The notes: generated from the sequence alone by a model not told the origin. 32,000 nt of DNA from Candidatus Nitrosopumilus koreensis AR1 (GCF_000299365.1 NC_018655.1:1140001-1172000); one strand, 5' to 3'. Shown: positions 4,578 to 21,863, counted from the stretch's first letter. Numbers and translations are program-made.

Positions 4578-6746
4578 TTGGTACGCAAAGAAGAACCTTT
4601 GCAAATGCGAATAGGAGAAGCAAAACAAAGAGACGTAGGTAAAAAGCGAGCTCGAATTGGTCCCGAGGCAATGGACTTTCTTAAAGTTACTCCAGGAGAT
4701 ATTGTGGAAGTCATGGGTTCTAGGACTAGTTGTGCAGTAATTTGGCCAGTTGACGAAGATGAGAAATTTCCAGACATCATAAGAGTTGACGGACAAACAA
4801 GAAAGAATGTGGGTGCATCTCTAAACGACATTGTAAAGATTAGAAAAGTTACATCAAAGATGGCAAAAACAGTTTCATTAACTCCAGTAAATGACACAGT
4901 CACAGTAGACAAAGAGTTTACAGATTTTGTGAAAAACAGATTGAAAGGATTGCCAATTACACATGGTGATGAAATATCAGTAATGATTTTAGGAAATTCC
5001 ATGGATTTTAAAATTACAAAGACTACACCAAAAGGAGTAGTAAAGATTGACCGCTCCACCACATTAAACATTTCAACTGAAACTGCAGTGGACAGAAAGG
5101 TCAGAGTAACCTATGAAGAAGTTGGTGGATTAAGAGAAAAAGTAAAAGCAATGAGAGAGATAGTAGAGCTCCCATTAAAACACCCAGAACTATTTGCCAG
5201 ATTAGGAATTGAACCTCACAGTGGAATCTTACTTTATGGACCACCTGGTTGTGGAAAGACTTTGCTTGCAAAAGTATTGGCAAGTGAATCAGAAGCTAAC
5301 ATGTTTCCAATCAACGGTCCAGAAATTATGAACAAGTATTATGGTGAGACAGAAGCAAAGCTAAGAGATATTTTCAAAGAAGCAAAAGACAACTCTCCAA
5401 GCATTATTTTCATTGATGAAATTGATGCAATTGCTCCAAAAAGAGAAGAAGCTTATGGAGATGTTGAAAAAAGAGTTGTCGCACAACTTTTGGCATTAAT
5501 GGATGGTCTAAATGACAGGGGAAATGTCATTGTTCTTGGAGCAACAAACAGACCAGACAGTGTAGATCCCGCACTTCGAAGACCAGGCAGATTTGACAGA
5601 GAGTTTGAGATCTCAGTTCCAAACGAGGATGGAAGAATAGAGATTCTTCAAATCCACACACGAGGCATGCCAATTGATGAGGATGTAGATCTAAAAGATT
5701 TAGCATCAGAATTACATGGATACACAGGAGCAGACATCAAATCATTATGCAGAGAAGCTGCGATGAAATCAATTAGAAGGTATTTGCCTGAAATAGATCT
5801 TGAGACAGAAAAGATACCTTCAGAAGTATTACAATCAATGAAGATAAAATTAATCGATTTTTACGATGCAATGCACGAGGTTGTCCCAACTGCAATGAGG
5901 GAGTTCTATGTCGAACGACCCAAAGTTTGGTGGCAAGACGTTGGCGGACTAGATGAAATCAAAAAAGCATTAACAGATAATCTGATTTTAGCTATGAATG
6001 AACCAAATAAATTTACAAAGATGGGAATCAAACCGCCAAAAGGTGCATTAATTTACGGACCACCAGGATGTGGGAAAACTCTGCTTGGCAGAGCTCTTGC
6101 AACTGAAACTGGTGCAAACATGATTTTGGTTAGAGGACCAGAAATTCTTTCAAAATGGGTTGGAGAATCTGAAAAAGCAGTTAGAGAAATTTTCAGAAAG
6201 GCGAAAGCATCATCTCCATGTGTAGTCATTTTTGACGAGTTAGACTCACTTGCACGCAATAAATCAGGAGAAGGAGGAGTGGGTGAAAACATCCTAAGCC
6301 AACTACTTACAGAGATTGAAGAAGGAATTTCTTCACGTGTTGTAGTTATTGGAATTACAAATAGACCAGATGTGGTAGATAATTCATTGTTAAGAACTGG
6401 AAGATTAGATTTAGTTCTGTATGTTTCCCCTCCAGATGAGAAAGGAAGATTAGAGATCATTAAAATTTTGACAAAAAAAATGCCACTAACAAATGATGTA
6501 AAATTACAAGAGATTGCAGTTGCAACTCAAAATTATACGGGTGCAGATTTGGCAGCATTATGTAGAGAAGCAGCAGTTCAGGCCATGCAAAACAATGCAA
6601 CAAAAATATCCAGTCAAGACTTTGCAAATAGTTTGAAACGTGTAAGACCATCAATTACAAAAGAAGTTGATCAATGGTATAATTCAGTGAAGGAAAGTAT
6701 ATCTAACGTGGTACCAAAGACAGGAGATAAAACATTCTACGGATAA
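4578..6746 (+). CDS. cdc48: Cdc48/VCP-type AAA+ ATPase (two ATPase domains)
   Basis: 722 aa with an N-domain. Two Walker A motifs GPPGCGKT, and Walker B motifs IIFIDEID and VVIFDELD. The ORF track begins at TTG 4578; ATG 4605 (MRIGEAK) is a plausible true start. Confidence 0.95.
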
Positions 6747-6748
6747 AA

Positions 6749-7045
6749 ATGACAATACCAATCAGAAATACAGTGTTTGACAAAATTAAAGAAGCAGGTT
6801 CATTAACAGATGTTGAGCTTTACAAAATTTTAACAAAAGAGGGCTTTGCCATTACAGAAGCCAGATTCAACAAGATACTTTTAGATTTAGAAATTCTTGG
6901 ACTCATCAAAGTATCTTGGATTACAAAAGATGAGCGCAGAATTGAGGTTTTCTTAGAAGAAATTGAAGTCGATGAAGTCGATGAACAAAATAAAGAAATG
7001 ATGGAAAAAGACTACGAAGCAAGTTTTCCAGGTTTTGAAAAATAA
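6749..7045 (+). CDS. Hypothetical small protein, possibly a winged-helix fold, with an acidic C-terminus
   Basis: 98-aa ORF starting 2 nt after the cdc48 stop. I recognise no family. Confidence 0.5.
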   Translation: MTIPIRNTVFDKIKEAGSLTDVELYKILTKEGFAITEARFNKILLDLEILGLIKVSWITKDERRIEVFLEEIEVDEVDEQNKEMMEKDYEASFPGFEK

Positions 7046-7047
7046 TT

Positions 7048-7941
7048 CTAAAACAAAGGAATATGAAATGCTGCATCTAGTGCAACTGCTACAAAAATTA
7101 TTGTAAGATACGGAGCAGTAACTTTGTATGCTTTCCAAGCAAATTCAGATGTAGGAGTCTTTGTAAGTTTGTAATGATATGCCAACATCAATCCACCAGA
7201 CACAGCTGCAATTACAGTATAAACAACACCCAATCCATCAGGGATAAACGAGAGAATTAAAGAATAAGGAAGCAAGATTATCGTGTTTCCCAAAATATAC
7301 TTTGATGTTTTTTGCATCCCAATTACAACAGGCAACATTGGAACCTTAGCTTGTGCATATTCGTCTTTGATCTTCATTGCAAGACACCAAAAATGCGAAG
7401 GTGTCCAAACAAATACAAGAAATCCAACTAAGAATCCCAAAAGATCCATGCTTCCAGTAGCTGCAGACCAGCCAGCCCATGCAGCTGCACTGCCAGCAAT
7501 TCCACCAATTACAATGTTTGAAGTGTTTAGACGTTTTAGCCAAGCAGTATAGATAATAACGTAAGAGAAAATTCCAACTGCAATAAAGAATGCAGAAACA
7601 GCATTTAATGCAAAGAATCCGTAAATTACAGAGACGCAACTAACAACCAATCCATATATCAAAACATGAGACGCTGTCATTCGTCCTGAAGGAATAGGCC
7701 GTTTGCTTGTTCGCTCCATTTTAGGATCAATGTCTCTATCATAATAGTGATTTAGGGCACTAGAACCAGCAGATGCCAATGCACCAGCAATAATGATATG
7801 CATATATGACCAATAATCAAGTTCAGGAGCACCTGGAACAAGCTTGCTTGCGGCATACATCGAAGTAACCGCAGTAATTACTAGAAGAACAACTATCCTT
7901 GGTTTGGATATTTCCATTATCTCATTGAATCCCAATCTCAC
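7048..7941 (-). CDS. ctaB: Protoheme IX farnesyltransferase (heme O synthase), UbiA family
   Basis: 297 aa, polytopic. Contains the UbiA motif NHYYDRDIDPKMERTSKRPIPSGR. Confidence 0.9.
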   Translation of the reverse strand: MRLGFNEIMEISKPRIVVLLVITAVTSMYAASKLVPGAPELDYWSYMHIIIAGALASAGSSALNHYYDRDIDPKMERTSKRPIPSGRMTASHVLIYGLVVSCVSVIYGFFALNAVSAFFIAVGIFSYVIIYTAWLKRLNTSNIVIGGIAGSAAAWAGWSAATGSMDLLGFLVGFLVFVWTPSHFWCLAMKIKDEYAQAKVPMLPVVIGMQKTSKYILGNTIILLPYSLILSFIPDGLGVVYTVIAAVSGGLMLAYHYKLTKTPTSEFAWKAYKVTAPYLTIIFVAVALDAAFHIPLF

Positions 7942-8033
7942 TCTATCCTAGTCCAAAGCCATTTAATTTCTTCGTCCATTGATCCATAACATTTCAAAAG
8001 GAATAAGTATCTCAGCCCTACCAGCTACGTTAA

Positions 8034-9128
8034 ATGAGTAATTGGGACCTCATGATGCCGGGAATGGGACTCACATCCATAGGATTGGCTGGAGTCGTCT
8101 TATCATATGCAGGAATAGCACATACATTCATTGATGGAATGCATGCCTTGACTGGTCTTACCATGTTTGTAGGGCTAATCTTCTTATCTGCAGGCATCTT
8201 AGATGGAGGAATCTCAACTAGCAATAGAGCAAAAGCAACAGTGTTGGTAATTGCATCTATTGCATTAGGATTTGGAGCATTTGCATTTACAATGAATACT
8301 TCTGCATATACAGTCACTATAGCGGGAATTTTAATGGGAATTGCATTTCCAGCAATCATCATAGCGTATCTTGCAATGAAGCATCCACCATACTTGAAGC
8401 CAGTAGGCTCTATTGTAGCAATGGCATCAGCCGTAGGAATCATTGCATGGGTCGCATTTGGATTTGTTAGTCCAGACACATATATGATTCCTCAAGAAAT
8501 TACAGTTGAAGAACCAAGTGCCAAAGAAGTTGCACCAACAGGACCCATCTTTGCAATTGAAATTCTTGAAGGTTCATCCCAAGAAGGAAATCCTGATTTC
8601 GATCCTGATGCAGCAGTTGTTCAACAAGGACATGTAGTTAAATGGACAAATACAGACTCTGTTGCACATACTGCAACTAGTGCTGCAGACTTTGGAGAAA
8701 CATTTGATACAGGGTTGTTAGGAGCAGGCGAATCATTTACACTTGATACTACTAATTTAGAAACTGGCGAGTATGAATATTTCTGTATTGTACATCCTTG
8801 GATGGTTGCAACATTAACAATTGAAGCAGCAAAGGAACCAATCAAAGTTGTAATACCAGAAGGTGCAGCAATTCCAGAAGAGGGTAAAATCTATTATGAT
8901 CCCGAAGTAATTACAGTATCGGTAGGAGATACTGTTCAATGGGAGAATGCAGACAATACAGTACACACAGCAACATCAGGGCAACCACCTACAGATGCAA
9001 CAGGAGTTTTTGATTCTGAGATGATGTCAGCAGGAGATAGTTTTGAATTTACGTTTACAGAAGCAGGAAGTTATGATTATTACTGTACATTCCATCCATG
9101 GATGGTAGGAACTGTTAACGTAGAATAG
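8034..9128 (+). CDS. Membrane protein with a polytopic N-terminal domain and two C-terminal cupredoxin (type-1 blue copper) domains
   Basis: 364 aa. The first ~150 aa are hydrophobic helices. Two repeats of the ligand pattern H..(AHTATS / VHTATS) ... C-x2-H-x2-M (CIVHPWM, CTFHPWM). Confidence 0.85.
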   Translation: MSNWDLMMPGMGLTSIGLAGVVLSYAGIAHTFIDGMHALTGLTMFVGLIFLSAGILDGGISTSNRAKATVLVIASIALGFGAFAFTMNTSAYTVTIAGILMGIAFPAIIIAYLAMKHPPYLKPVGSIVAMASAVGIIAWVAFGFVSPDTYMIPQEITVEEPSAKEVAPTGPIFAIEILEGSSQEGNPDFDPDAAVVQQGHVVKWTNTDSVAHTATSAADFGETFDTGLLGAGESFTLDTTNLETGEYEYFCIVHPWMVATLTIEAAKEPIKVVIPEGAAIPEEGKIYYDPEVITVSVGDTVQWENADNTVHTATSGQPPTDATGVFDSEMMSAGDSFEFTFTEAGSYDYYCTFHPWMVGTVNVE

Positions 9129-9130
9129 AT

Positions 9131-9523
9131 TTGCAGAAAATCATCTTATCAAGTTCAGACAAGAAAATTCTTACAGAACATGCTGAAAATGAAAAACCAA
9201 ACGAATCATGCGCCATACTATTTGGTAAAAATGAAACAGTATCAGAGATATTTTTGACAAAAAATATTGAAGAATCACCAGTAAATTTTACCATTTCAAA
9301 TGAGCAGCTTATTGAAGGATACAAGACTGCCGAAGAAAAAAACGTGGATGTGATAGGCATTTTTCATTCGCATCCAAATTCAGAGGCATATCCATCAAGT
9401 ACAGACAAGAAATTCATGCAGAGCAATCCTGTTGCATGGATAATTTACTCTGGCGAAAACAAGGATTTTAGAGCATATAGGTTAGAATCAGAAATTATAG
9501 AAATTCCAATTGAGGAAAAATAG
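9131..9523 (+). CDS. JAB/MPN (JAMM) metalloprotease domain protein
   Basis: 130 aa with a TTG start. JAMM signature: E (ESCAILFG) followed by HSHPNSEAYPSSTD. Confidence 0.8.
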   Translation: MQKIILSSSDKKILTEHAENEKPNESCAILFGKNETVSEIFLTKNIEESPVNFTISNEQLIEGYKTAEEKNVDVIGIFHSHPNSEAYPSSTDKKFMQSNPVAWIIYSGENKDFRAYRLESEIIEIPIEEK

Positions 9524-12970: not shown

Positions 12971-15035
12971 TTGCAACAAATGCAGATACAAACACGATTG
13001 CAATTGTATTTAGCAATTTGATTACAGTGTTAAGTGCAGGACCTGCAGTGTCTTTGTAAGGATCACCTATAATATCACCAACAACTGCCACCTTGTGAAC
13101 TTCAGAACCTTTTTCGCCTTTCATCTCAACTAGTTTCTTTGCATTATCCCATGCGCCACCAGTATTTGCCAAGTGATATGCAAGGAGTATTCCAGTAACC
13201 ACAGCACCCATTAACAATCCAGCTACTGCAGTTGGACCTAACAAAACACCTAGAATAATTGGAGCAAGGATTGCAACTAATGCAGGTTTGTAAAGTTCTC
13301 TAATAGAAGCAACAGTTGCAATATCTACACATTTAGCATAATCTGGTTTTGATTTACCAGTAAGAATTCCTGGATCTGACTTGAATTGTCTTCTTACCTC
13401 ATCTACCATCTTTCCGGCAGCACGAGATACACCATTGATTAGTTGGCCTGTGATGATAAATGGAATCAGTCCACCAATCAAAAGACCTACAATAATTGCA
13501 GGGTTCGTTAAACTATAATCTAAATCTAAAACTCCTTCAAAGATATGAGCTGCCTCAAATTGGAATGCCTGAATCATGGCCAATGCAGCTAGTGCAGCAC
13601 TTGCAATAGCAAATCCCTTCGTAACTGCCTTGGTAGTATTTCCAACTGCATCAATTTCATCTGTGACTTTACGGTTTTCTTCACCCATGCCAGTCATCTC
13701 AACAATACCTCCTGCATTATCTGCAATTGGGCCAAATGCATCAATACTTAGAACAATTCCTGCAAGACTCAACATTGCCATTGCAGTTAGAGCAGTTCCA
13801 AAGATTCCATACAATACAGGATCTGCGCCTTCAGGAGCTGCTGCAGATGCAATACTGTAAGAGATAATGATTGCAACAACTAGTGCAATCATGAAAGGGC
13901 CTGTTGATTGCATACCTTTGATAATGCCCATTAATGTTAATGATGCATATCCCCACTTTGCAGAATCTGCAATTTCATTTACAGGACCATGCTTGTAACT
14001 AGTATAGTTATCAGTAATTTTTTGAATCACAGGTACTAGAATAACACCAATTACGGTTGTCCCAAACAATGCAATTCCTGCAGCGGATTGTTCAATGAAT
14101 TGTGTGATGAATACATAGTTTAATGCAATTGCAATCCCAGCTGAAACATAGAATGAACGATTAAGCGGTTTCATTACATCAGTTACTCCTTTAGAGCCAA
14201 CAATGACAACACCAATAATTGATGCAATCATTCCAGATGAGCCGATTAGAATTGGGTAAAGGAAATAGTTTGGAGCACCAATTAGTGCCGCAATTAGTAA
14301 TGCTGCTAAAATTGTAACAATATAAGACTCATAAACATCAGAACCCATTCCTGCTGCATCTCCAACATTATCTCCTACGTTATCTGCGATAGTTGCAGGG
14401 TTTCTAGGATCATCCTCAGGAATATTTGCTTCAACCTTTCCTACCAAGTCTGCACCCATATCTGCAGCCTTTGTGAAAATACCACCACCAATTCTAATGA
14501 ATAATGCAATTAAACTTGCGCCAATTCCCACACCAGCAATTGTGATGGGGTCAGGGAAAATGACATACAATCCTGCAATTGCCATTAATGCCATTGCAGG
14601 TACTGCAAGACCGACAGTTGCACCACCTCTAAAGGCCATAGCAAAAGTCTTTCCAAGACCATCATTGCTAAGATGAGCAGCTCTTACTGCTGCTTTTACT
14701 GTAATTTTTAATGAGATAATTCCTGCAACTGCAGACAATGCTGCGCCAACTGCAAACGCAAGACCGTTTGAGGGAGTAAGAAATGCGCCAATAATCACTG
14801 TTAATGCAATTGCAACAGGAATGATAATTTTCATCTCTCTTTTTAGAAATGCTGCAGCGCCAACTTTGACAGCATTTGAGATATCCATCATCTCTTTTGT
14901 TCCAGAAGGCTGCTTTGAAATCCAAGCAACCAATCCGCCAGCGACTAAAAATGATGCAATTCCTGCGATAAATGGCAGAATCTCAGCGATTTCCATGTTA
15001 TACTCGCTTGCCCTAGTCTGGGAAATATAAATCAA
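12957..15035 (-). CDS. hppA: Membrane-bound H+-translocating pyrophosphatase, K+-independent type
   Basis: 692-aa polytopic ORF with GGG.FTKAADMGADLVGKVE, DNVGDNVGD and GNTTKAVTKGFAI. Lys in GNTTKA is the published K+-independence signature. The probable start is ATG 14996 (MEIAEILPF). Confidence 0.95.
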   Translation of the reverse strand: MIYISQTRASEYNMEIAEILPFIAGIASFLVAGGLVAWISKQPSGTKEMMDISNAVKVGAAAFLKREMKIIIPVAIALTVIIGAFLTPSNGLAFAVGAALSAVAGIISLKITVKAAVRAAHLSNDGLGKTFAMAFRGGATVGLAVPAMALMAIAGLYVIFPDPITIAGVGIGASLIALFIRIGGGIFTKAADMGADLVGKVEANIPEDDPRNPATIADNVGDNVGDAAGMGSDVYESYIVTILAALLIAALIGAPNYFLYPILIGSSGMIASIIGVVIVGSKGVTDVMKPLNRSFYVSAGIAIALNYVFITQFIEQSAAGIALFGTTVIGVILVPVIQKITDNYTSYKHGPVNEIADSAKWGYASLTLMGIIKGMQSTGPFMIALVVAIIISYSIASAAAPEGADPVLYGIFGTALTAMAMLSLAGIVLSIDAFGPIADNAGGIVEMTGMGEENRKVTDEIDAVGNTTKAVTKGFAIASAALAALAMIQAFQFEAAHIFEGVLDLDYSLTNPAIIVGLLIGGLIPFIITGQLINGVSRAAGKMVDEVRRQFKSDPGILTGKSKPDYAKCVDIATVASIRELYKPALVAILAPIILGVLLGPTAVAGLLMGAVVTGILLAYHLANTGGAWDNAKKLVEMKGEKGSEVHKVAVVGDIIGDPYKDTAGPALNTVIKLLNTIAIVFVSAFVAIIAL

Positions 15036-15418
15036 ATAGCGGAGACTCTGATTCTTTTTCTGTATGGCAGAAATGATTTGCCACGCAAACCCTGCCTTAC
15101 GAGTTTGTTGAATCTCTTTCCATGTGCAAGATATGGGAATCGCATATGGATCAATTCATGAACAATTGTGTTTTCAAGAGTTTTCTCATCAGGAATTTTT
15201 CTCACATTAATGAAAACTAAATTGTGTTGAAGATAAGATACTCCATAGTACTTGTAAGCAGATGTACGTCTTCCTTCAGTCATCTCCTTTGGCGCATCTA
15301 GAACTTCTTTTGTAGTTAGTAAGATTGTAGGTTCAGGAATAGAGAATCGATTAGCATAGATCCCAACTTTTTCTAAAATTTGCAATTTCAATTCAGGATC
15401 AAGCTTCACATAATCCAA
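15032..15418 (-). CDS. Small HExxH zinc-metallopeptidase-like protein (SprT/DUF45-like)
   Basis: 128-aa ORF with a TTG start. Contains the motif IVHELIHMRFPYLAHGKRF. An in-frame TGA lies directly upstream of the TTG. Confidence 0.55.
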   Translation of the reverse strand: MDYVKLDPELKLQILEKVGIYANRFSIPEPTILLTTKEVLDAPKEMTEGRRTSAYKYYGVSYLQHNLVFINVRKIPDEKTLENTIVHELIHMRFPYLAHGKRFNKLVRQGLRGKSFLPYRKRIRVSAI

Positions 15419-15431
15419 TCATACAATCTAT

Positions 15432-15449
15432 GTTTATCTTGGAATGTCA
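15432..15449 (+). repeat. Left copy of the 18-bp direct repeat (candidate attL or target duplication)
   Basis: Identical to 21239-21256. Confidence 0.85.
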
Positions 15450-15456
15450 GTATTTT

Positions 15457-15476
15457 GTATCGGTAAAATAAAACGC
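15457..15476 (+). repeat. Left subterminal inverted repeat (20 nt)
   Basis: Its reverse complement matches 21208-21227 at 19/20. It contains a TATA-like TTTTATTTTA. Confidence 0.75.
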
Positions 15477-15542
15477 ATTTGACAGATTTTGTGACTAAAA
15501 TAAGAGCTTTGAAAGTACGAAATATGTCTAAAATAAGGTCAA

Positions 15543-16754
15543 TTATCCATAAAGAATTGCCATATGGACTGGACCGCCATATTTCATTCCCTTACTCCCC
15601 ACCATATTTCCAGCAGAAACAAAAATTTCAGCTGTGAATTTAGTAGAAAAATGTTCAATTCCAAACAGAGTCTTTAGTATTTTTAACAAATATCCTCTTG
15701 CAACTCTTTCAGCATCCCATAATCGATTTTTAATTTTCTCTCTTTCGGATTCGGTAATGGTGTAACTATTACCATGAGCAATCTTATGCCTAAGATTATA
15801 GAGGGACATATCTTCAGATTGTTTTTCAAACAATAGTTTGTAAGTTTCAGAATCTTTACCATGTAATTTTTCGATATGAGATTTTAGTGTTTGAGTAGAG
15901 CCAGTTTCTATACAATTCAGATATGCATTTTTTATGGATTCTATTGGATTCTTTCCAAGTTCACTTAAAGATTGTTCAATGCAATTTTTCATATTTTCTT
16001 TACGTTCACTCTTGGTCCTATTGTCTGCTCTAAATTGAATTAATGAAGAATTTTCTTTTGCCTCTTTTTCTATATAATATGCAAGAGATTCAATAGTTAA
16101 AATAAAAAATAAAAATTTCGCAGAGGGATCATTCAATCTAAATGATTGAGATAACCAACCAATACTACGATATATAGCATAATGATCTTCTTGTGGAATA
16201 TTTTCTAATTTTGATGTGATATTTTCTAATTCTTGTAAATGTTCTTCAGTAAATTGATAGGATGAACCATGATCATGAGATTCGTATTTTGGCAACCATT
16301 CAAAATAAGTTCCAGTTTTTAAAGAAAATGAAGAAAGGGCCTTGTCTATTTCTTTTAATGATTTTCGAACATTGTCTTCAGACCAATCAGATATTGGCAA
16401 CCATCCATCATACACAAATCTAGAACGCCTATCCATATCCATAGTTTTTAATCCAATTGGATCATCTTTACTAATTCTATTTCCTAGTGTAAAACATGGA
16501 ACAAGAGTGATGTTCCCATTAAGAGTTATAGGATTTGTTAATTTTGAGCTTGAAAAAGCAACAAACTCAAACCCATCACAATTTGTTAATTCATGTAAGA
16601 AGAACGCTGAACCTTCAGCAGTAGTGAGATCTTTTCTGGCAGCGTATCGAAATGCTTTTTGTGTCTTTAAATCGCTTTCAGAAATTACTATTTTCCGTTC
16701 ACACCAATTATTGAATTTATTACCTTCAATTTGAGGAAAAATCGAATCAGACAT
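15543..16754 (-). CDS. Uncharacterised 403-aa protein with a C-terminal HEPN-like domain (Rx4H: LRHKIAHG)
   Basis: Long ORF. R322-H-K-I-A-H327-G is encoded at 15774-15791, which I checked against the nucleotides. The motif sits about 75 aa from the C-terminus, after a helical segment with a conserved-looking Glu (FILTIESLAYYIEKE). I do not recognise the N-terminal ~200 aa. Confidence 0.6.
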   Translation of the reverse strand: MSDSIFPQIEGNKFNNWCERKIVISESDLKTQKAFRYAARKDLTTAEGSAFFLHELTNCDGFEFVAFSSSKLTNPITLNGNITLVPCFTLGNRISKDDPIGLKTMDMDRRSRFVYDGWLPISDWSEDNVRKSLKEIDKALSSFSLKTGTYFEWLPKYESHDHGSSYQFTEEHLQELENITSKLENIPQEDHYAIYRSIGWLSQSFRLNDPSAKFLFFILTIESLAYYIEKEAKENSSLIQFRADNRTKSERKENMKNCIEQSLSELGKNPIESIKNAYLNCIETGSTQTLKSHIEKLHGKDSETYKLLFEKQSEDMSLYNLRHKIAHGNSYTITESEREKIKNRLWDAERVARGYLLKILKTLFGIEHFSTKFTAEIFVSAGNMVGSKGMKYGGPVHMAILYG

Positions 16755-16906
16755 AAAACAAAGTGCTAGTAAGAGTGTAAAAAATGATCAGAGGTATTTG
16801 TATTTAAAACTCCTATTTGGGATATTCTAAATTATTTAATACGTAAAATCAGTACAGGATCCTATTTTTCCAAACTTATTTTATAGAAATATTCTGCAAT
16901 AAAATA
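16755..16906. promoter_or_regulatory. Divergent promoter region between the two HEPN-like genes
   Basis: TATA-like TTATTTTATAGA at 16876-16887 lies 20 nt before ATG 16907. A T-rich CATTTTTTACA on the minus strand (16776-16786) lies 22 nt before ATG 16754. This geometry fits leaderless archaeal mRNAs. Confidence 0.35.
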
Positions 16907-18010
16907 ATGGCTTCAATAATACTATCTTTTCAAGTAATAATAGAAGATTATGAAACAAAATTTAGACTTCATGGACCATTATTTCATAGATGGATTCCAG
17001 ATGGTGAGAAAGATGCGCTAATTTTGGATACACGATTTCCACATACGATGCTGAAAATATGGTTTGAAAGAAGAGGATATGTAGAAAGAGGAATGATTGA
17101 ATTTGATTCTAAACGTAAAGAGGTGGATGAATCAATTATGGAAAAACAAGGAGTATTAGAAGGAGGCAGATTATTTGGCTCATTACAGATAGATGAAGTT
17201 ACAAAAGAGCAATTTGACGCTCTAAAACAGAATAAAATTGGAGATGAACACTATAAAGAACTAGGAACAAAATTTGCAAAGACAATTTACGAACCAATCT
17301 CTCAGTTCTTAGATCTTCTACGGATAAGATATGGACAGTATTGGGTTAGAGACATAAGAAAATGGGATTCATCAAAGGAATCAATTGGTAATTATTGTGA
17401 ATTATTTTTTGTCAAGTGGTCTGAGGATGAAGGAAAGAGTTGGAATGAGTTTAAACCAGATAATGAACCAAGATCAGCAATAATATATTCATCATCAATA
17501 AAAGAAATGAAATCTTTTTTGAGTAAAGAAGATTGGAGAAATACCCCAGAAATATTAAAAAATTATCATCGTAGTTCAGTGGCAGAAAGAACTCTTGTAC
17601 GAGTACATCAATATTTAGATCAGGGAGATTTTCGTCATGCAATTATTGAGGGAGCAACAGCTGTAGAGCTAGCTACCAGTGAATTTTTTAACATGAAATT
17701 AGATTCAGATTCAAAAATAAAAGATGAACTTAATGGGTTTTGGGGAATTTCAGTATCTGGACAATTAGTAGCAATAGGAACAACATTAGGAATACCTGAA
17801 CAGAAATTACAAGATACAATAGAAGTCATAAAAACAAGACATAAAGTTGTACATGAAGGATTAGATCCAGATGCACAAATTATACAAAAAATTAGAACTT
17901 TACTTGAAACCACATCCATGATTCTAGGAGAACCAAAATTCAGATTTCCATCATCAAATCCAGGGAATATGATACAGGAAAATGAAGATTGGGAAAAAGA
18001 AAATGGATGA
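16907..18010 (+). CDS. Uncharacterised 367-aa protein with a C-terminal HEPN-like domain (Rx4H: TRHKVVHEG)
   Basis: Long ORF. R311-H-K-V-V-H316 is encoded at 17837-17854, verified in the nucleotides. It is preceded by a helix AIIEGATAVELATSEFF and followed by a terminal helix IIQKIRTLLETTSMIL. The N-terminal ~220 aa are unrecognised. Confidence 0.6.
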   Translation: MASIILSFQVIIEDYETKFRLHGPLFHRWIPDGEKDALILDTRFPHTMLKIWFERRGYVERGMIEFDSKRKEVDESIMEKQGVLEGGRLFGSLQIDEVTKEQFDALKQNKIGDEHYKELGTKFAKTIYEPISQFLDLLRIRYGQYWVRDIRKWDSSKESIGNYCELFFVKWSEDEGKSWNEFKPDNEPRSAIIYSSSIKEMKSFLSKEDWRNTPEILKNYHRSSVAERTLVRVHQYLDQGDFRHAIIEGATAVELATSEFFNMKLDSDSKIKDELNGFWGISVSGQLVAIGTTLGIPEQKLQDTIEVIKTRHKVVHEGLDPDAQIIQKIRTLLETTSMILGEPKFRFPSSNPGNMIQENEDWEKENG

Positions 18011-18127
18011 CATATTTATTTTGAAAATTTCATGCCTGAATCCCTGTTTTAGAGATAGGTTCTGAGGCTTTGTATGGTTTAACAAAGATATTTTATTGAT
18101 TTACAAATATCACAAATAAGGAACAAG

Positions 18128-18709
18128 TCATCTAAACAATCCATTGTTTATAATTATCACATGAATTGATCCAAAAATAAATGTCAATGTAGAAAATGTC
18201 ACTAATGTAAATGGGTAATCCTTCCATGATTTAGTAAATACAATGCCATGTTTTGCAAGTTGTATTTTTGCATTATATCCGAAAACAGAGGTTGCAAAAG
18301 GGAGAAAAAAAGTTGAAAGGATAGATACAATAACAGACAAATTGGAAAACCTATCTGAATCAAGAACGATTTCATTGTGTTGTTCAGCAATCAATTCAAA
18401 TAACTCTATCATGAAAAAAATTCCATCAATAAAAAAAGACATACCAATTCCCAGAATTGTAAAACCAATTATTGATGCCTGTTTGCGAGAAATTCGAATA
18501 TTCCAAAATGGACTGAAAAAACGCAACAACGTCAAAATCATCAACATCCAAAAAACTACAAAAGGGATCATGCTTGTCCATAAAAATTCCCGAAAGTCAT
18601 ACATTGTTTGTTCAAAAACAAGTAAACTGGTAATAGAAAGGAAAATACTCCACCATGTGAAAAGATTGTGATAATATTCAGATAGAAGAAAATGTAAGAA
18701 TTGTTTCAT
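18128..18709 (-). CDS. Hypothetical multi-pass membrane protein (about 5 TM helices)
   Basis: 193-aa ORF with hydrophobic segments WWSIFLSITSLLVF, MIPFVVFWMLMILTLL, IIGFTILGIGMSFFIDGIFFMI, LSVIVSILSTFFLPFATSVF and FTLVTFSTLTFIFGSIHVIII. Confidence 0.6.
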   Translation of the reverse strand: MKQFLHFLLSEYYHNLFTWWSIFLSITSLLVFEQTMYDFREFLWTSMIPFVVFWMLMILTLLRFFSPFWNIRISRKQASIIGFTILGIGMSFFIDGIFFMIELFELIAEQHNEIVLDSDRFSNLSVIVSILSTFFLPFATSVFGYNAKIQLAKHGIVFTKSWKDYPFTLVTFSTLTFIFGSIHVIIINNGLFR

Positions 18710-18970
18710 TAGTTAGTCTTAATCTAATTTCTAATTAATTGAAGATATAGATATCTGTGGGATTTACTAGACATCAGTCTTCAAATTCTACTAATCCTTC
18801 AAACATTTTCTCCGGCCGGACTATAGAATCATAGTTTTTACAGTAAATTTCAACAAATTCATCCCGGGAGTTGATATTTGAGTAATGTCTCTTGCAATAA
18901 TTTTTGAAATATGATTTTGTTCAAAAAGGAACGGATTGTATGGTTAAAAATTATTTTTTGGAATTGTTTT

Positions 18971-20887
18971 TTATCTCAGATTACGAAATTGATCTGGATT
19001 TGTGGTAGTTATAGTTATGAAGCTAGTTCCCTGACGCGGTTCACGATCACAAATAACATGTTCCCAGTGATTTTCAGGGATCCAATTTTTTAGTTCTGGA
19101 TCATAAACGAAATGAATTTTTGCCAAGTTTTTTTCATAGAAAAAATCTATTTTTTCTCTATCAGGTCCTGCAGGATTTCCTTCCGAAACTATTTCGATTG
19201 CAAAAGGTTTCAGATTTGTATAATTTGAGTAAAATTTGGGGACGTCCATTCTGTATAGTTTGGATTCATTCCTTTCAATGACTTCTTCTTTATAAAATGC
19301 CTCACGTACAAGTTTTACTCTGTCTTGAAGATAATAGTTAGAATTATCAACATTACAGAGTTCTTCATTTAGATACCATGAAGATTTTACAAGGGAATCA
19401 TATTTCCCAATATTCGTTACTTTAAGATCCCAATAGGTTCCTCCAAGGTCACCATCACGTTTGAATGGATGGATTTCATACTCAAGTTCCAGTTCAAAAT
19501 CCTGATACAGACTAGCTAACATCAAACCATTACTTCTTTCCAAGGCTTCCAAAATTTTTGACGTAGATTCACTTTCTCCAAGCATTTCTTCAGTTAATGA
19601 AACTAATGTTCCAGTAAGACTAAGAATAACAACTGTTGCTATAGCTGTCAATATAGCAGAGCCAACAAGAATTCTTTGAGTCCAAATGTTAGTGTTTTCT
19701 AAGGATTGGCTGGATTTTGTTTGAGCAAAACTTACAAGTTCTTTAAGATGTTCAGAAAGAATTTTGTATTGATTATTTAGAACGCCGTATTCTTCATCAA
19801 TAATTTTTGTATTTTTGTTAACATAATCTAATATATTGAAAAAAAATCCATAGTTTTTGGTAACAATATTTCCTCCAGTTATTGAGATTTCTGGACGTGG
19901 GAGTAAATCATGTTCAAGTGCACCTTCAACAAATTTTGAAATGTATCTTGTTTCATCAATAATACTAGAGAATTCTAAGAGAAAAGAGCTTTTTTCAATT
20001 AAAGGTGTGGGTCCAAAATCTTTTTTGGACAAAGTAATTTTTTCTTGAAATGTACTAATTTCTTTATTAAAAACATCTAGTTTCGTTTTCCATTTATGTA
20101 TCTGAGAAATTCTAAAATTTGTCCACAACCACAATAGTTGAGTTTCTAAGCTGTTTTCCATAGAAGATGAAAAAAACAGGTCTCCATCAAACAATTTTGA
20201 TTCTTGAGAAAACTCTAATTTTATAATCCATGAAAAATCATACCCATAATTAGAAAAAATTGATGCACCCTGAGCAATGACAGATATCTTATTAGCAAAA
20301 TATTCAGAAATTGAAATTAATCCACCGTAATTGACACCATATTTTCTCATGAAGGGTTTTTCTCGAAATTCTTTTGAAAATTCATCAGAAGTTTTATCAT
20401 GTTCAAGTTTACAGATTTCATCAAAATCAGGTGCTTCAAAATAGAAATTTACAAATCCACAGCCAGAATCAAACCTAAAATTATCTTTTGAATCAGAAAC
20501 AGCGCCAATTCCCATCCCTTTCCAAAATGACCAAAATCTCTTTCTCAAGGTTTCAATTTTTGTTCTGCTTTCATTAATTTCGCCAGATTCAATTTCTTCA
20601 ATAGTTTCTGAGGATAGAAATCCACTCATTTGGATAGTATGCATAAAGGAAAAACGTGCATAATTAATTACACGAATTTTTACTTCACTCATAAAAGAAA
20701 TGGATTCTGGGATTTCTGTTAGAGACCATTCTTGAAATGAGCCTCCACCCATAGGTCCGGTTTGAATCCAATTTGAGGATTTTGGGACTTCCCCATCAAT
20801 AATTTGTTTAATAGAATTATCGAGTTTGTTTTTTTCATTTTTGGTAACAAAATCTAAAATTGTGATTTTTCCTTTGCTTAATTTCAT
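18971..20887 (-). CDS. Uncharacterised 638-aa protein: ~400-aa N-terminal domain, single central TM helix, ~205-aa C-terminal domain
   Basis: Long uninterrupted ORF in AT-rich DNA. The only strongly hydrophobic stretch is ILVGSAILTAIATVVILSLTGTLVSL (about aa 405-431, nt 19595-19675). I see no P-loop or other catalytic motif. Confidence 0.65.
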   Translation of the reverse strand: MKLSKGKITILDFVTKNEKNKLDNSIKQIIDGEVPKSSNWIQTGPMGGGSFQEWSLTEIPESISFMSEVKIRVINYARFSFMHTIQMSGFLSSETIEEIESGEINESRTKIETLRKRFWSFWKGMGIGAVSDSKDNFRFDSGCGFVNFYFEAPDFDEICKLEHDKTSDEFSKEFREKPFMRKYGVNYGGLISISEYFANKISVIAQGASIFSNYGYDFSWIIKLEFSQESKLFDGDLFFSSSMENSLETQLLWLWTNFRISQIHKWKTKLDVFNKEISTFQEKITLSKKDFGPTPLIEKSSFLLEFSSIIDETRYISKFVEGALEHDLLPRPEISITGGNIVTKNYGFFFNILDYVNKNTKIIDEEYGVLNNQYKILSEHLKELVSFAQTKSSQSLENTNIWTQRILVGSAILTAIATVVILSLTGTLVSLTEEMLGESESTSKILEALERSNGLMLASLYQDFELELEYEIHPFKRDGDLGGTYWDLKVTNIGKYDSLVKSSWYLNEELCNVDNSNYYLQDRVKLVREAFYKEEVIERNESKLYRMDVPKFYSNYTNLKPFAIEIVSEGNPAGPDREKIDFFYEKNLAKIHFVYDPELKNWIPENHWEHVICDREPRQGTSFITITTTNPDQFRNLR

Positions 20888-20950
20888 ATTTGTATGAAAA
20901 TAATAATAGATTTAACTATTTTTTAAAAATTCAAATTTTCAGTAAAAATG

Positions 20951-21190
20951 TTAATTTTTTAGTCGCCTAAGAGATTCCCAAACCCCATAATGCTCCAATG
21001 TTTCAGTGTCATAGTTTTCTACAATTTTGGTCGAGCCAGTTCTCATATAATCCCCTAAAGATTCGGTGAATTGGATTTGATTTTTCAATAAATGTTGAAG
21101 ATCAGATACATGGATTTTCAATTCTTCCATTTCAGATTTTTCTACTCGCAGTTGTTGTATGAAGATTTCTTGTATTTGAGAAAAGATCAT
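20951..21190 (-). CDS. Hypothetical 79-aa helical protein at the island's right end
   Basis: ORF with heptad-like helical composition (IQEIFIQQLRVEKSEMEELKIHVSDLQHLLKNQIQ). A TATA-like AAATTAAAA inside the right inverted repeat lies about 25-30 nt upstream of its ATG. Confidence 0.45.
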   Translation of the reverse strand: MIFSQIQEIFIQQLRVEKSEMEELKIHVSDLQHLLKNQIQFTESLGDYMRTGSTKIVENYDTETLEHYGVWESLRRLKN

Positions 21191-21207
21191 AGTTAATTAT
21201 TCAATTT

Positions 21208-21227
21208 GCGTTTTAATTTACCGATAC
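21208..21227 (+). repeat. Right subterminal inverted repeat (20 nt)
   Basis: gcgttttaatttaccgatac matches the reverse complement of 15457-15476 at 19/20. Confidence 0.75.
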
Positions 21228-21238
21228 TTCTGGTATGC

Positions 21239-21256
21239 GTTTATCTTGGAATGTCA
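21239..21256 (+). repeat. Right copy of the 18-bp direct repeat (candidate attR or target duplication)
   Basis: Identical to 15432-15449. Confidence 0.85.
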
Positions 21257-21307
21257 ATTGTTGTAAGAAATTTGGTTGATTTTCATTCTTCAGAATTATG
21301 AATTAAT

Positions 21308-21367
21308 AGGGTCAGAGGTTTTAGTAGTGTAATCACGAGTCATACAGCCACCGTCTCATCATACCCC
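21308..21367 (-). ncRNA. Candidate C/D-box sRNA (about 60 nt)
   Basis: Minus strand reads GGGGU-AUGAUGA(C box)-GACGGUGGCUGU-AUGA(D'-like)-CUC-GUGAUUA(C'-like)-CACUACUAAAACCU-CUGA(D box)-CCCU. The 5' GGGG can pair with the 3' CCCU. It starts 1 nt after the stop of the upstream gene. Confidence 0.5.
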
Positions 21368-21368
21368 G

Positions 21369-21863
21369 TTATTCCATTAAATCAAGTAGACTTTGTACTT
21401 TATTTCTAATTTCTGAGTTAATTTTGACTACCACGAGTCCTTCATTTGGTTGACCGTACAATACAACAGAATTTTCAGGAGCATGAATACAAACGGGCAA
21501 TACCAAAAGGTCTTCTTCACCAGTTACAAGAATTCGTATTGGAGTTTTCATCAAAAATGCCTTTTTGATTACATCAATACTTTGAGAAGTGATTTCGGCA
21601 GGAGGGTTATCAACAGTTATCTCAGTTGCGTTTGCAAGTTTTGGCGGTTCTCGTTTTTCTCTTTTTTCGATACCATCTACAATCTGTAATGATGGAATTA
21701 AATCAAAACCAATCATCTTTTCAGTGGTTCTATCACCAACTGTAATGATGTAGGAATTTTGCTCAATATGTTTGAGAATATTTTCTTTGTTTGATTGACT
21801 TTCAGGTATAAGAGTACCCAAAGGGATTTTCATTTGTTCTCTTAGAGAGTCAGGTAACTTCAC
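21369..21863 (-). CDS. DUF359 family protein (archaeal GTP-dependent dephospho-CoA kinase family)
   Basis: 164 aa. ITVGDRTTEKMI...LQIVDGIEKR...ILVTGEEDLLVLPVCIHAPENSVVLYGQPNEGLVVVKI matches the DUF359 pattern. Confidence 0.8.
   Translation of the reverse strand: MKLPDSLREQMKIPLGTLIPESQSNKENILKHIEQNSYIITVGDRTTEKMIGFDLIPSLQIVDGIEKREKREPPKLANATEITVDNPPAEITSQSIDVIKKAFLMKTPIRILVTGEEDLLVLPVCIHAPENSVVLYGQPNEGLVVVKINSEIRNKVQSLLDLME

Follow-up and report, generated by a model that had tools for sequence, protein, structure and literature searches.

A small recombinase-less accessory island with probable HEPN cargo at a promoter-like insertion hot spot in "Candidatus Nitrosopumilus koreensis" AR1

Introduction

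The chromosome of "Candidatus Nitrosopumilus koreensis" AR1, a marine ammonia-oxidizing archaeon, carries at NKOR_06965 to NKOR_06985 a 5.8-kb segment bounded by perfect 18-bp direct repeats. This segment was analyzed within a window of 32,000 nucleotides (nt) (GCF_000299365.1, NC_018655.1, positions 1140001 to 1172000), and all AR1 coordinates given here are counted from the first base of that window. The segment, which earlier catalogues do not list, is a small accessory island that lacks a recombinase and has probable HEPN cargo. It was probably inserted at a promoter hot spot in the AR1 lineage and probably has no autonomous mobility. Ammonia-oxidizing archaea are abundant and have compact genomes, and the route by which strain-specific genes are gained is poorly understood. 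Published censuses of mobile elements were keyed to integrase or casposase genes and to islands of >15 kb, as in the study by Park et al. (PMC4010524), for which this island is too small, so small islands that lack a recombinase have gone unlisted. The locus provides a clean natural example of such an island, with an exact empty site, an exact duplication of an 18-bp promoter-like motif, and about 27 loci in which the same 150-nt spacer holds other DNA.

The island and its boundaries

The island body spans positions 15450 to 21238 (5,789 bp) and was restricted to the AR1 group. Two draft assemblies, AR and SJ, which Park et al. described as indistinguishable from AR1 (PMC4010524), share the same 21 kb at 99.99 to 100% identity, and the island in them is identical. 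It is enclosed by two exact copies of the 18-mer GTTTATCTTGGAATGTCA, at 15432 to 15449 (left copy, proximal to a SprT-like gene and reading TGACATTCCAAGATAAAC on the minus strand) and at 21239 to 21256 (right copy, 48 nt upstream of the ATG of an open reading frame [ORF] of 79 amino acids [aa]). Inside these repeats, at distances of 7 and 11 nt, lie the left arm GTATCGGTAAAATAAAACGCA (15457 to 15477, plus strand) and the right arm GTATCGGTAAATTAAAACGCA (21207 to 21227, minus strand) of an inverted repeat. Both kinds of repeat and both gaps had been noted in an original prediction made from the sequence and were recovered here; the inverted repeat proved one base longer than first described (21 nt with 20 of 21 positions complementary, rather than 20 nt with 19 of 20). 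A third copy of the 18-mer was absent from the window with up to 2 mismatches allowed (0.00 expected; 100 shuffles), as was any further copy of the 21-nt arm at ≤3 mismatches (0.00 expected by chance).

Five ORFs are enclosed, as predicted, coding for proteins of 403 (minus strand), 367 (plus strand), 193 (minus strand), 638 (minus strand), and 79 (minus strand) aa. The flanks contain the anticipated genes, encoding an H+-pyrophosphatase (hppA) and an HExxH/SprT-like protein on the left and DUF359 and Mrp/NUBPL (mrp) proteins on the right. The G+C content of the island was 0.308, compared to 0.352 in the remaining window, which bears out an AT richness that had been asserted without calculation. 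Among 263 sliding 5.8-kb windows, none had a lower G+C content, and none deviated more in tetranucleotide composition. No tRNA genes were found in the window.

Empty sites in related loci

Related loci were retrieved by a scan with the SprT-like protein, which yielded 80 metagenome loci with homologues 84 to 95% identical; the state of the spacer between DUF359 and SprT could be read in 71 of them. Comparison by tblastn of all window proteins recovered the order mrp, DUF359, SprT, and hppA in essentially all 80 loci. Whether relatives hold the same five genes at this position had been raised as a check on the prediction, and no homologue of any island protein occurred in any of the 80. DUF359 lay directly beside SprT in about 44 of the 71 informative loci, with a spacer of about 150 nt.

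The closest four loci (L082 to L085; identities of 95% for SprT, 88 to 90% for DUF359, and 96 to 98% for Mrp) contain the empty site that had been predicted, in which the exact 18-mer occurs once at the colinear position. A virtual empty site, made by removing the island and one repeat from AR1, was colinear with these loci over the junction, with identities of 87 to 92% toward DUF359 and 88% toward SprT, and the sequence on the DUF359 side of the right repeat matched them right up to the repeat. Native DNA therefore reaches each repeat copy, and foreign DNA starts immediately inside it. A search of genome contigs anchored on the pyrophosphatase gene gave mainly bacterial sequences; its two informative matches, the distant relatives L001 and L002, likewise had an empty site, in which the 18-mer was not recognizable.

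In a neighbor-joining tree of SprT and DUF359 (calculated without support values, for a region that may recombine), AR1 nested inside the empty-site clade of L082 to L085. The segment is thus an insertion relative to close relatives and was most likely gained in the AR1 lineage. It is quite improbable that the island and both repeats were instead ancestral to this clade and were lost from the empty relatives by recombination between the 18-mers. A deletion between the repeats would yield exactly the arrangement of L082 to L085, deletions do happen at this locus, and precise loss is conceivable because the flanks of even the nearest relatives differ by about 10%. However, all four sampled clade members outside AR1 are empty, the second 18-mer is still identical at 18 of 18 positions though the adjacent intergenic DNA differs by 6 to 25% from relatives, the composition of the island is deviant, and an earlier duplication event would still be required.

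The direct repeat as a promoter-like motif

The left copy of the 18-mer lies upstream of the SprT-like gene, 22 nt away from its GTG start codon. In the form TGACAT-N5-RATAAAC, the motif occurred once, at the same position, in nearly all of the 80 relatives, and a degenerate 18-mer pattern gave one match per relative locus and two only in AR1-group loci; in the loci covered, the repeats are thus not a scattered intergenic motif, a finding that the original prediction had named as one that would refute it. The AR1-specific variant, with TCC in the middle of the motif, is identical in both copies and was found elsewhere only in L082 to L085. The right copy is preceded (minus-strand reading) by native intergenic sequence, designated type A. 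The insertion point coincides exactly with this conserved promoter-like motif of the SprT-like gene, which now flanks the island as a perfect direct repeat. Apart from CAATTG at its upstream edge, the 18-mer is not palindromic.

The A/T-rich RATAAAC is centered about 26 nt before the SprT-like start codon, which is the geometry of archaeal promoters with a B recognition element (BRE) and a TATA box that produce leaderless mRNAs. From this position, the 18-mer is best interpreted as a putative BRE/TATA-type core promoter-like element of a housekeeping gene.

A single exact match to the 18-mer was returned from 2.9 million viral contigs (L081, positions 8393 to 8410). It falls inside a phage gene and was judged a chance match at this database size; the product of that gene bears an HEVGH motif.

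Predicted proteins of the island

The island proteins were compared to the Pfam, PADLOC, PHROGs, and NCBIfam databases. The 403-aa protein (NKOR_06965; 15543 to 16754, minus strand) matched the Pfam family HEPN_RiboL-PSP at 28.0 bits, near but below the cutoff of 28.4 bits, and is named "Apea-like HEPN" in UniRef. It has 54 homologue clusters, and residues R322 and H327 were invariant in 42 homologues. The AlphaFold2 (AF2) model of this protein (predicted local distance difference test score [pLDDT], 87) gave no significant PDB fold match, with the HEPN protein HepS matching weakly. The 367-aa protein (NKOR_06970; 16907 to 18010, plus strand) belongs to an unannotated family with 555 clusters in a representative library, in which R311 and H316 were invariant or nearly so. 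The top PDB matches of its AF2 model (pLDDT, 82.5) were HEPN domains, including those of Csm6, AF_0298, TM0613, and HEPN toxins (probability, 0.96 to 1.0; target TM-score, about 0.6; E values, 0.02 to 0.2). A few members of this family matched HEPN Pfam models weakly; the 367-aa protein itself had no Pfam match. PADLOC returned a single match for the island proteins, of the 367-aa protein to PDC-S15 (E = 0.0017; 15.8 bits), and it was not credible.

Both proteins contain the conserved R-x4-6-H of the HEPN superfamily in a helical domain, and both fall short of curated family thresholds. As judged from sequence and structural models, they are probably HEPN RNA-cutting toxins or ribonucleases (RNases), the 403-aa protein of the Apea-like/RiboL-PSP type and the 367-aa protein with a C-terminal HEPN domain. 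These two larger soluble proteins of the island share with HEPN toxins and defense RNases (Apea-like, RiboL-PSP, Csm6, and HEPN-MNT) the invariant R-x4-H and its placement in a C-terminal helical domain, and the fold matches of the 367-aa model are likewise HEPN domains. They differ from such systems in being subthreshold and in matching no PADLOC system; in addition, the island holds no MNT or other partner gene, and the N-terminal domains of both proteins are uncharacterized. The presence of two divergently transcribed probable HEPN ribonucleases in the cargo suggests a defense or toxin role. Homology between the two was undetectable (BLASTP E = 0.8; hhalign probability, 8%), and a paired two-gene system was rejected since their homologues occur separately in other contigs. 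Neither HEPN-like family had a match in the viral contigs.

A homologue of the 403-aa protein with 55% identity was found in an unrelated metagenome contig (L163, positions 6172 to 7589), beside a DUF5615 gene and a gene for a 370-aa tyrosine integrase (Phage_integrase).

The 193-aa protein (18128 to 18709, minus strand) is a putative membrane protein with several hydrophobic segments read from its translation. The 638-aa protein (NKOR_06985; 18971 to 20887, minus strand) has one central hydrophobic segment, and its sole match among 5.8 billion sequences was itself. Neither had a family match in the four databases. The 79-aa ORF (20951 to 21190, minus strand), which is the first gene after the right repeat and is called as a gene also in L165 and L166, had no credible Pfam family match. 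The original description of the cargo as orphan genes therefore holds for the 638-aa protein, a true orphan, and fails for the 403-aa and 367-aa proteins with their 54 and 555 clusters.

Recurrent insertion in the DUF359-SprT spacer

The DUF359-SprT spacer was filled with unrelated DNA of 0.06 to 5.5 kb in about 27 loci, with at least six unrelated cargoes in the same spacer. Across the genus, this spacer is a hot spot for repeated insertion, at which the position is the same and the content differs among strains. Cargoes outside AR1 encode a Cas4-like PD-(D/E)XK nuclease (seven loci), multicopper oxidases, an acyl-CoA dehydrogenase, a GNAT acetyltransferase (in a 5.5-kb insert), a helix-turn-helix regulator with a DsbA-like protein, and a histidine kinase fragment; the remainder include short noncoding inserts. 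A partial second copy of the motif was found at the far end of several inserts, matching at 14 of 18 positions 134 nt upstream in L149 to L151 and L157, as TGAATTTCAAAG after type A in L119, and as ATAC-T-ACATTTCAAG in L138. AR1 was the only locus with both motif copies intact. The right end of the AR1 island was compared with small inserts elsewhere; a resemblance to those of L149 and L146 was rejected (shuffle test, z = 0.4), and the comparison to the small insert of L120 gave z = 3.5.

Several inserts have features of their own. The Cas4-like nuclease (L100, L103 to L105, L107, L108, and L125; for example, positions 9154 to 9891 of L107) is 245 aa long, has a C-terminal cysteine cluster, and is followed by the block designated type B below. 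Multicopper oxidase inserts lie between type A and a small RNA (sRNA) candidate that follows DUF359 (L135, 8552 to 9910; L158, 5558 to 6886; also L106, L136, and L147), and this entry point, at the sRNA/type A boundary, differs from that of the AR1 island. L159 holds, just upstream of the motif (about 740 to 805), a 62-nt insert that contains a perfect hairpin (TTTTCGTTAA...TTAACGAAAA) and is flanked by 10-nt repeats, CTTACA[GA]AAT.

The inverted repeat and the type B block

The left arm of the inverted repeat is contained in the type B block (GTCAAATGCGTTTTATTTTACCGATACAAAATAC; 15450 to 15485, minus strand), which lies directly upstream of the left repeat in the orientation of the SprT-like gene. 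A homologous 34-nt block (GTCAAATGCGTTTAGTTGTnnnnATACAAAATAC) directly precedes the motif in 23 loci, which fall into four or more other clades (L138/L102/L119; L139/L160; L149 to L151/L157; and L120/L100 to L108/L125). Homology ends sharply at GTCAA, with unrelated DNA beyond, and an nhmmer profile of the block matched at this position only in about 0.77 Mb of related DNA. Empty-site loci have type A sequence (...AACCAAATTTCTTACAACAAT) before the motif instead, and AR1 has both: type A precedes the right copy of the repeat, and type B precedes the left one. Every type B locus has extra spacer DNA, from 40 nt to >5 kb; in L102, type A is followed directly by type B.

The left arm had been taken as the element's own terminus. 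That view is contradicted by the presence of this block beside the 18-mer in the other clades, next to unrelated cargo and without a partner. No inverted partner of the block was found at the far end of the other type B loci; the search in L138 gave only a marginal match, which was reached by 4 of 300 shuffles and lies inside a possible ORF. In sequence, the AR1 right arm follows the block variant specific to AR1 (TTTTATTTTACCG) rather than the consensus. The two AR1 arms are therefore specifically related to each other, and the right arm appears to be an AR1-specific inverted copy of the type B arm.

Only 16 nt separate the end of the right arm from the ATG of the downstream 79-aa gene, a promoter-like spacing that may be functional. 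The left arm includes a T-run 66 nt past the stop codon of the 403-aa gene, which might be read in the sense of a promoter/terminator module. On the plus strand, the left arm has the sequence of the promoter-positioned right arm and faces the 3' end of the 403-aa gene; expression of an antisense RNA or of a small ORF (ATG at 15524) might start from it in the plus-strand region 15479 to 15637.

The arms, the direct repeats, and the shared block raise the possibility that AR1 carries a member of a family of nonautonomous site-specific integrative elements, a reading that is tentative and that forms a sharper version of the preferred explanation rather than its opposite. The 18-mer would be the att core, the arms would be binding sites for a recombinase supplied in trans, the circular form would be ordered arm, 7 nt, core, 11 nt, and arm, and the 34-nt type B block would be a conserved attP arm, common to related elements that entered other lineages. 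The perfect duplication of the core, with an empty site in relatives, is consistent with such a family, as are the sharp boundary of the block and its place next to the core in loci of four or more separate clades whose cargoes differ. The match of the right arm to the AR1-specific block variant (20 of 21) suggests coupled arms, a homologue of the 403-aa protein stands beside a tyrosine integrase in another organism (L163), and AR1 has three integrase-type elements elsewhere in its genome (PMC6563490). On the other hand, no integrase was found in the island, its 10-kb flanks, or any alternative cargo, a second arm was seen in no other locus, the far-side junctions of the inserts vary in position, and the block is locus specific, with no other site in 0.77 Mb. 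The att sites listed for the other AR1 elements are also unrelated, and the block could be ancestral and repeatedly lost through slippage between TACAA-AAT repeats. Neither the 21-mer nor the predicted circular junction (...CCGATACAAAATAC-TGACATTCCAAGATAAAC-GCATACCAG...) was found in the viral contigs.

With modest probability, the AR1 island is the best-preserved representative of a family of elements that target promoters. In its broadest form, which is rather improbable, this would be an undescribed class of recombinase-less Nitrosopumilus cargo elements that share a 34-nt end block, insert at the SprT-like core promoter, and are mobilized in trans by an enzyme encoded by the host or by an element. 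Duplication of the promoter would then keep promoters for both the host gene and the cargo, and no member would be better preserved than the AR1 island, the only copy in which both arms are present and both repeats are intact.

Mobility genes and comparison with known elements

Comparison of the five island proteins with the four family databases detected no recombinase, and none was present among genes called in the 10 kb around the island or in the other cargoes of the spacer. The original prediction had recognized no integrase, transposase, casposase, or polymerase in the island, and this absence was confirmed and extended to the 10-kb surroundings. Any mobility would therefore require an enzyme acting in trans, or else the event was a single one.

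Four integrated elements were listed for AR1 by Krupovic et al. in 2019 (NitAR1-C1 and NitKor-E1, -E2, and -E3), all at other coordinates and with att sites of unrelated sequence (PMC6563490); the island is not one of them. The island shares with the cryptic and other integrated elements of Thaumarchaeota a content of mostly uncharacterized genes, short direct repeats, low G+C content, and absence from related genomes at the same site (PMC6563490). Those elements are defined by an integrase or casposase gene, whereas the AR1 island has none, and they target tRNA genes or the 3' ends of protein genes rather than an intergenic promoter. Thus, of the characteristics of integrase-type elements, direct repeats and a single-copy empty site were found and an integrase gene was not. 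An integron cassette and an element exploiting Xer/dif were rejected, given the absence of an integrase and the nonpalindromic 18-mer.

The island resembles miniature inverted-repeat transposable elements (MITEs) and other nonautonomous transposons in having direct and inverted repeats, no transposase, and possible mobilization in trans. It departs from insertion sequences and MITEs in that the usual target duplications (2 to 15 bp) are shorter than its 18-bp repeat, the well-matched portion of the inverted repeat begins 7 and 11 nt in from the direct repeats and only G[T/C]AT is shared at the tips, and the left arm is common to loci without a right arm. The 18-mer, the 21-mer, and the type B profile were found only at this locus in the 32-kb window and the 0.77 Mb of related loci. 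Of the mobile-element geometry first proposed, insertion, empty site, and deviant composition stand, and the classical combination of a target-site duplication (TSD) with terminal inverted repeats (TIRs) is only partly supported; with a left arm shared with partnerless loci and an 18-mer that is a promoter-like motif, insertion at a promoter hot spot fits better.

AR1 has its own family 1 casposase, encoded by casposon NitAR1-C1 at 655 to 663 kb of the genome, outside the window (PMC6563490), and off-target integration of a noncasposon island by this enzyme was considered. In vitro, the AR1 casposase integrates almost any DNA sequence up to about 4 kb, and its strict target is a TTT leader followed by the 13-bp TSD ATTGATAAAGAGT, in which A1, A11, and T13 are needed and ATAA at positions 5 to 8 acts as a ruler (PMC8464041). 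Under this reading, the island repeat would be parsed as GTTT/ATCTTGGAATGTC/A, in a site with the target ...CTATGTTTATCTTGGAATGTCAATTG.... The broad substrate range of the enzyme favors such an event, as do the TTT leader, A1, and GTTTAT prefix of the island repeat; the natural target also starts with GTTT/AT and gives an apparent repeat of 21 to 22 bp, longer than the true 13-bp TSD. However, the island site has G11, C13, and TGGA at positions 5 to 8 in place of the required bases and matches the TSD at only 4 of 13 positions. The termini of the island (GTATTTT... and GCATACC...) are unlike the casposon TIR AGTAAAAATAGAATCCCCCC and unlike AGTAAAAATAGAATCC, whereas a casposon would have TIRs that abut the TSD and end in TTCTA, and the island, at 5.8 kb, is long for an enzyme whose integration efficiency dropped with substrate length (PMC8464041). 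Casposase integration is accordingly judged highly improbable. The island and NitAR1-C1 share a host, long apparent direct repeats beginning with (G)TTTAT, and inverted repeats near the ends; the island differs from the casposon in having no casposase (Cas1 homologue) or family B polymerase gene, no A11, T13, or ATAA ruler in the target, and no casposon TIR, with its arms lying 7 and 11 nt in.

In marine prokaryotes, flexible genomic islands are located at hot spots that are conserved in position between core genes. The AR1 island shares with them a fixed chromosomal position, varying accessory or defense-type cargo, low G+C content, and no obvious mobility genes. It differs from them in scale, with inserts of 0.1 to 5.8 kb in a spacer of 150 nt, and in the exact duplication of an 18-bp promoter motif and the conserved 34-nt end block, two features that hint at a specific mechanism.

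Possible mechanisms of insertion

Under the preferred explanation, that of an AR1-lineage island inserted at the promoter hot spot and incapable of autonomous mobility, the cargo would have entered the short spacer between the C/D-box sRNA downstream of DUF359 and the SprT-like gene, and the motif would have been duplicated by, or recombined at, the insertion event. A circular DNA with one copy of the motif might have recombined at the 18-bp core in a Campbell-type event, leaving an attL/attR pair; the two arms would flank the core in the circle, and the predicted order (type A, repeat, 11 nt, arm ... arm, 7 nt, repeat, and SprT) is the one observed. Fill-in of a staggered break would likewise give two copies of the variant of the host lineage. 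Either way, one promoter copy would be left to the SprT-like gene and the other placed upstream of the 79-, 638-, and 193-aa gene string, and a precise deletion of the island would result if the two 18-mers recombined.

Several observations weigh against this explanation. The far-side junctions of other inserts lie at different points of the motif (after 18, 12, or about 0 to 6 nt), which a single site-specific crossover does not predict. L102 and L119, which are 97 to 99% identical, differ by a 1.1-kb indel bounded by ACAAC[A/T]ATT, an 8- to 9-nt repeat other than the motif, so microhomology-mediated events also act at this locus. The variable junctions and the microhomology-bounded indels argue against one precise crossover as the explanation of the whole hot spot. 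The closest empty-site relatives are only about 88 to 92% identical in the flanks, and the tree that places AR1 among them carries no support values for a region that may recombine. The promoter roles proposed for the 18-mer and the right arm are read from position only. Finally, no recombinase (island and 10 kb), circular junction (viral contigs), or second copy (window and 0.77 Mb) was found.

Some of the same observations would be expected if no dedicated mobility were involved and a fragile or permissive spacer captured DNA by illegitimate or microhomology-mediated joining, with alleles then spread by homologous recombination in the flanks. The 18-bp repeat would be a by-product of break repair, and the inverted repeat would be a reused promoter/terminator module. 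Many unrelated recombinase-less cargoes in the spacer, the variable junction positions and repeat lengths, the L102/L119 indel with its 8- to 9-nt microhomology, the 62-nt insert of L159 between 10-nt repeats, and the inserts placed elsewhere in the spacer (sRNA/type A) are consistent with such capture, as are the left-arm T-run 66 nt past the 403-aa stop and the promoter-like distance of the right arm from the 79-aa gene. This explanation is nevertheless considered unlikely for the AR1 island, in which the exact 18-bp duplication at both boundaries of native and foreign DNA is long for repair microhomology, the 20/21 inverted pair is unique within 32 kb and improbable as coincidental reuse of a module, and boundaries within 18 bp on both sides cannot be given by homologous recombination.

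If a specific enzyme targets the promoter, the locus would be a tractable entry to a mechanism of archaeal gene flow and possibly a safe insertion site. If no such enzyme is involved, it would be an ordinary small hot spot island with probable HEPN toxins.

Native flanks and other observations

The SprT-like HExxH gene (15032 to 15409, minus strand; 125 aa) had a weak match to the Pfam SprT-like family. It most likely starts at the GTG at 15409 rather than at the TTG at 15418 given in the ORF list: relatives conserve M-K-L-D-P from that GTG, public gene calls are also 125 aa (L165), and the conserved start is GTG or ATG before AAR-YTN-GAY. The native right flank is formed by the DUF359 gene (21369 to 21863, minus strand; Pfam PF04019, E = 3.5e-37); an exact-match look-up of its protein gave no record, probably owing to a different called start.

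Native intergenic DNA conserved across relatives (21257 to 21368, minus strand) separates DUF359 from the right repeat and consists of an sRNA candidate followed by type A. The candidate, a putative C/D-box sRNA (about 21308 to 21368, minus strand), lies immediately after the DUF359 stop codon and was kept in all relatives covering the region. Its C box reads ATGATGA, its C' box TGATTA, and its D box CTGA; the terminal stem is GGGG/CCC, and the Rfam match was weak (sR20; 22 bits; E = 0.4).

A second variable site was seen in L130, where about 3 kb of extra DNA (5071 to 8200) lies between mrp and an Rpb7-like gene that are adjacent in other loci. The distant relative L001 (CBDBLO010000002.1), a metagenome-assembled genome labeled Nitrosopumilus sp., has a G+C content of 61% in this region, which is unusual for the genus name; it nevertheless retains the order mrp, DUF359, SprT, and hppA.

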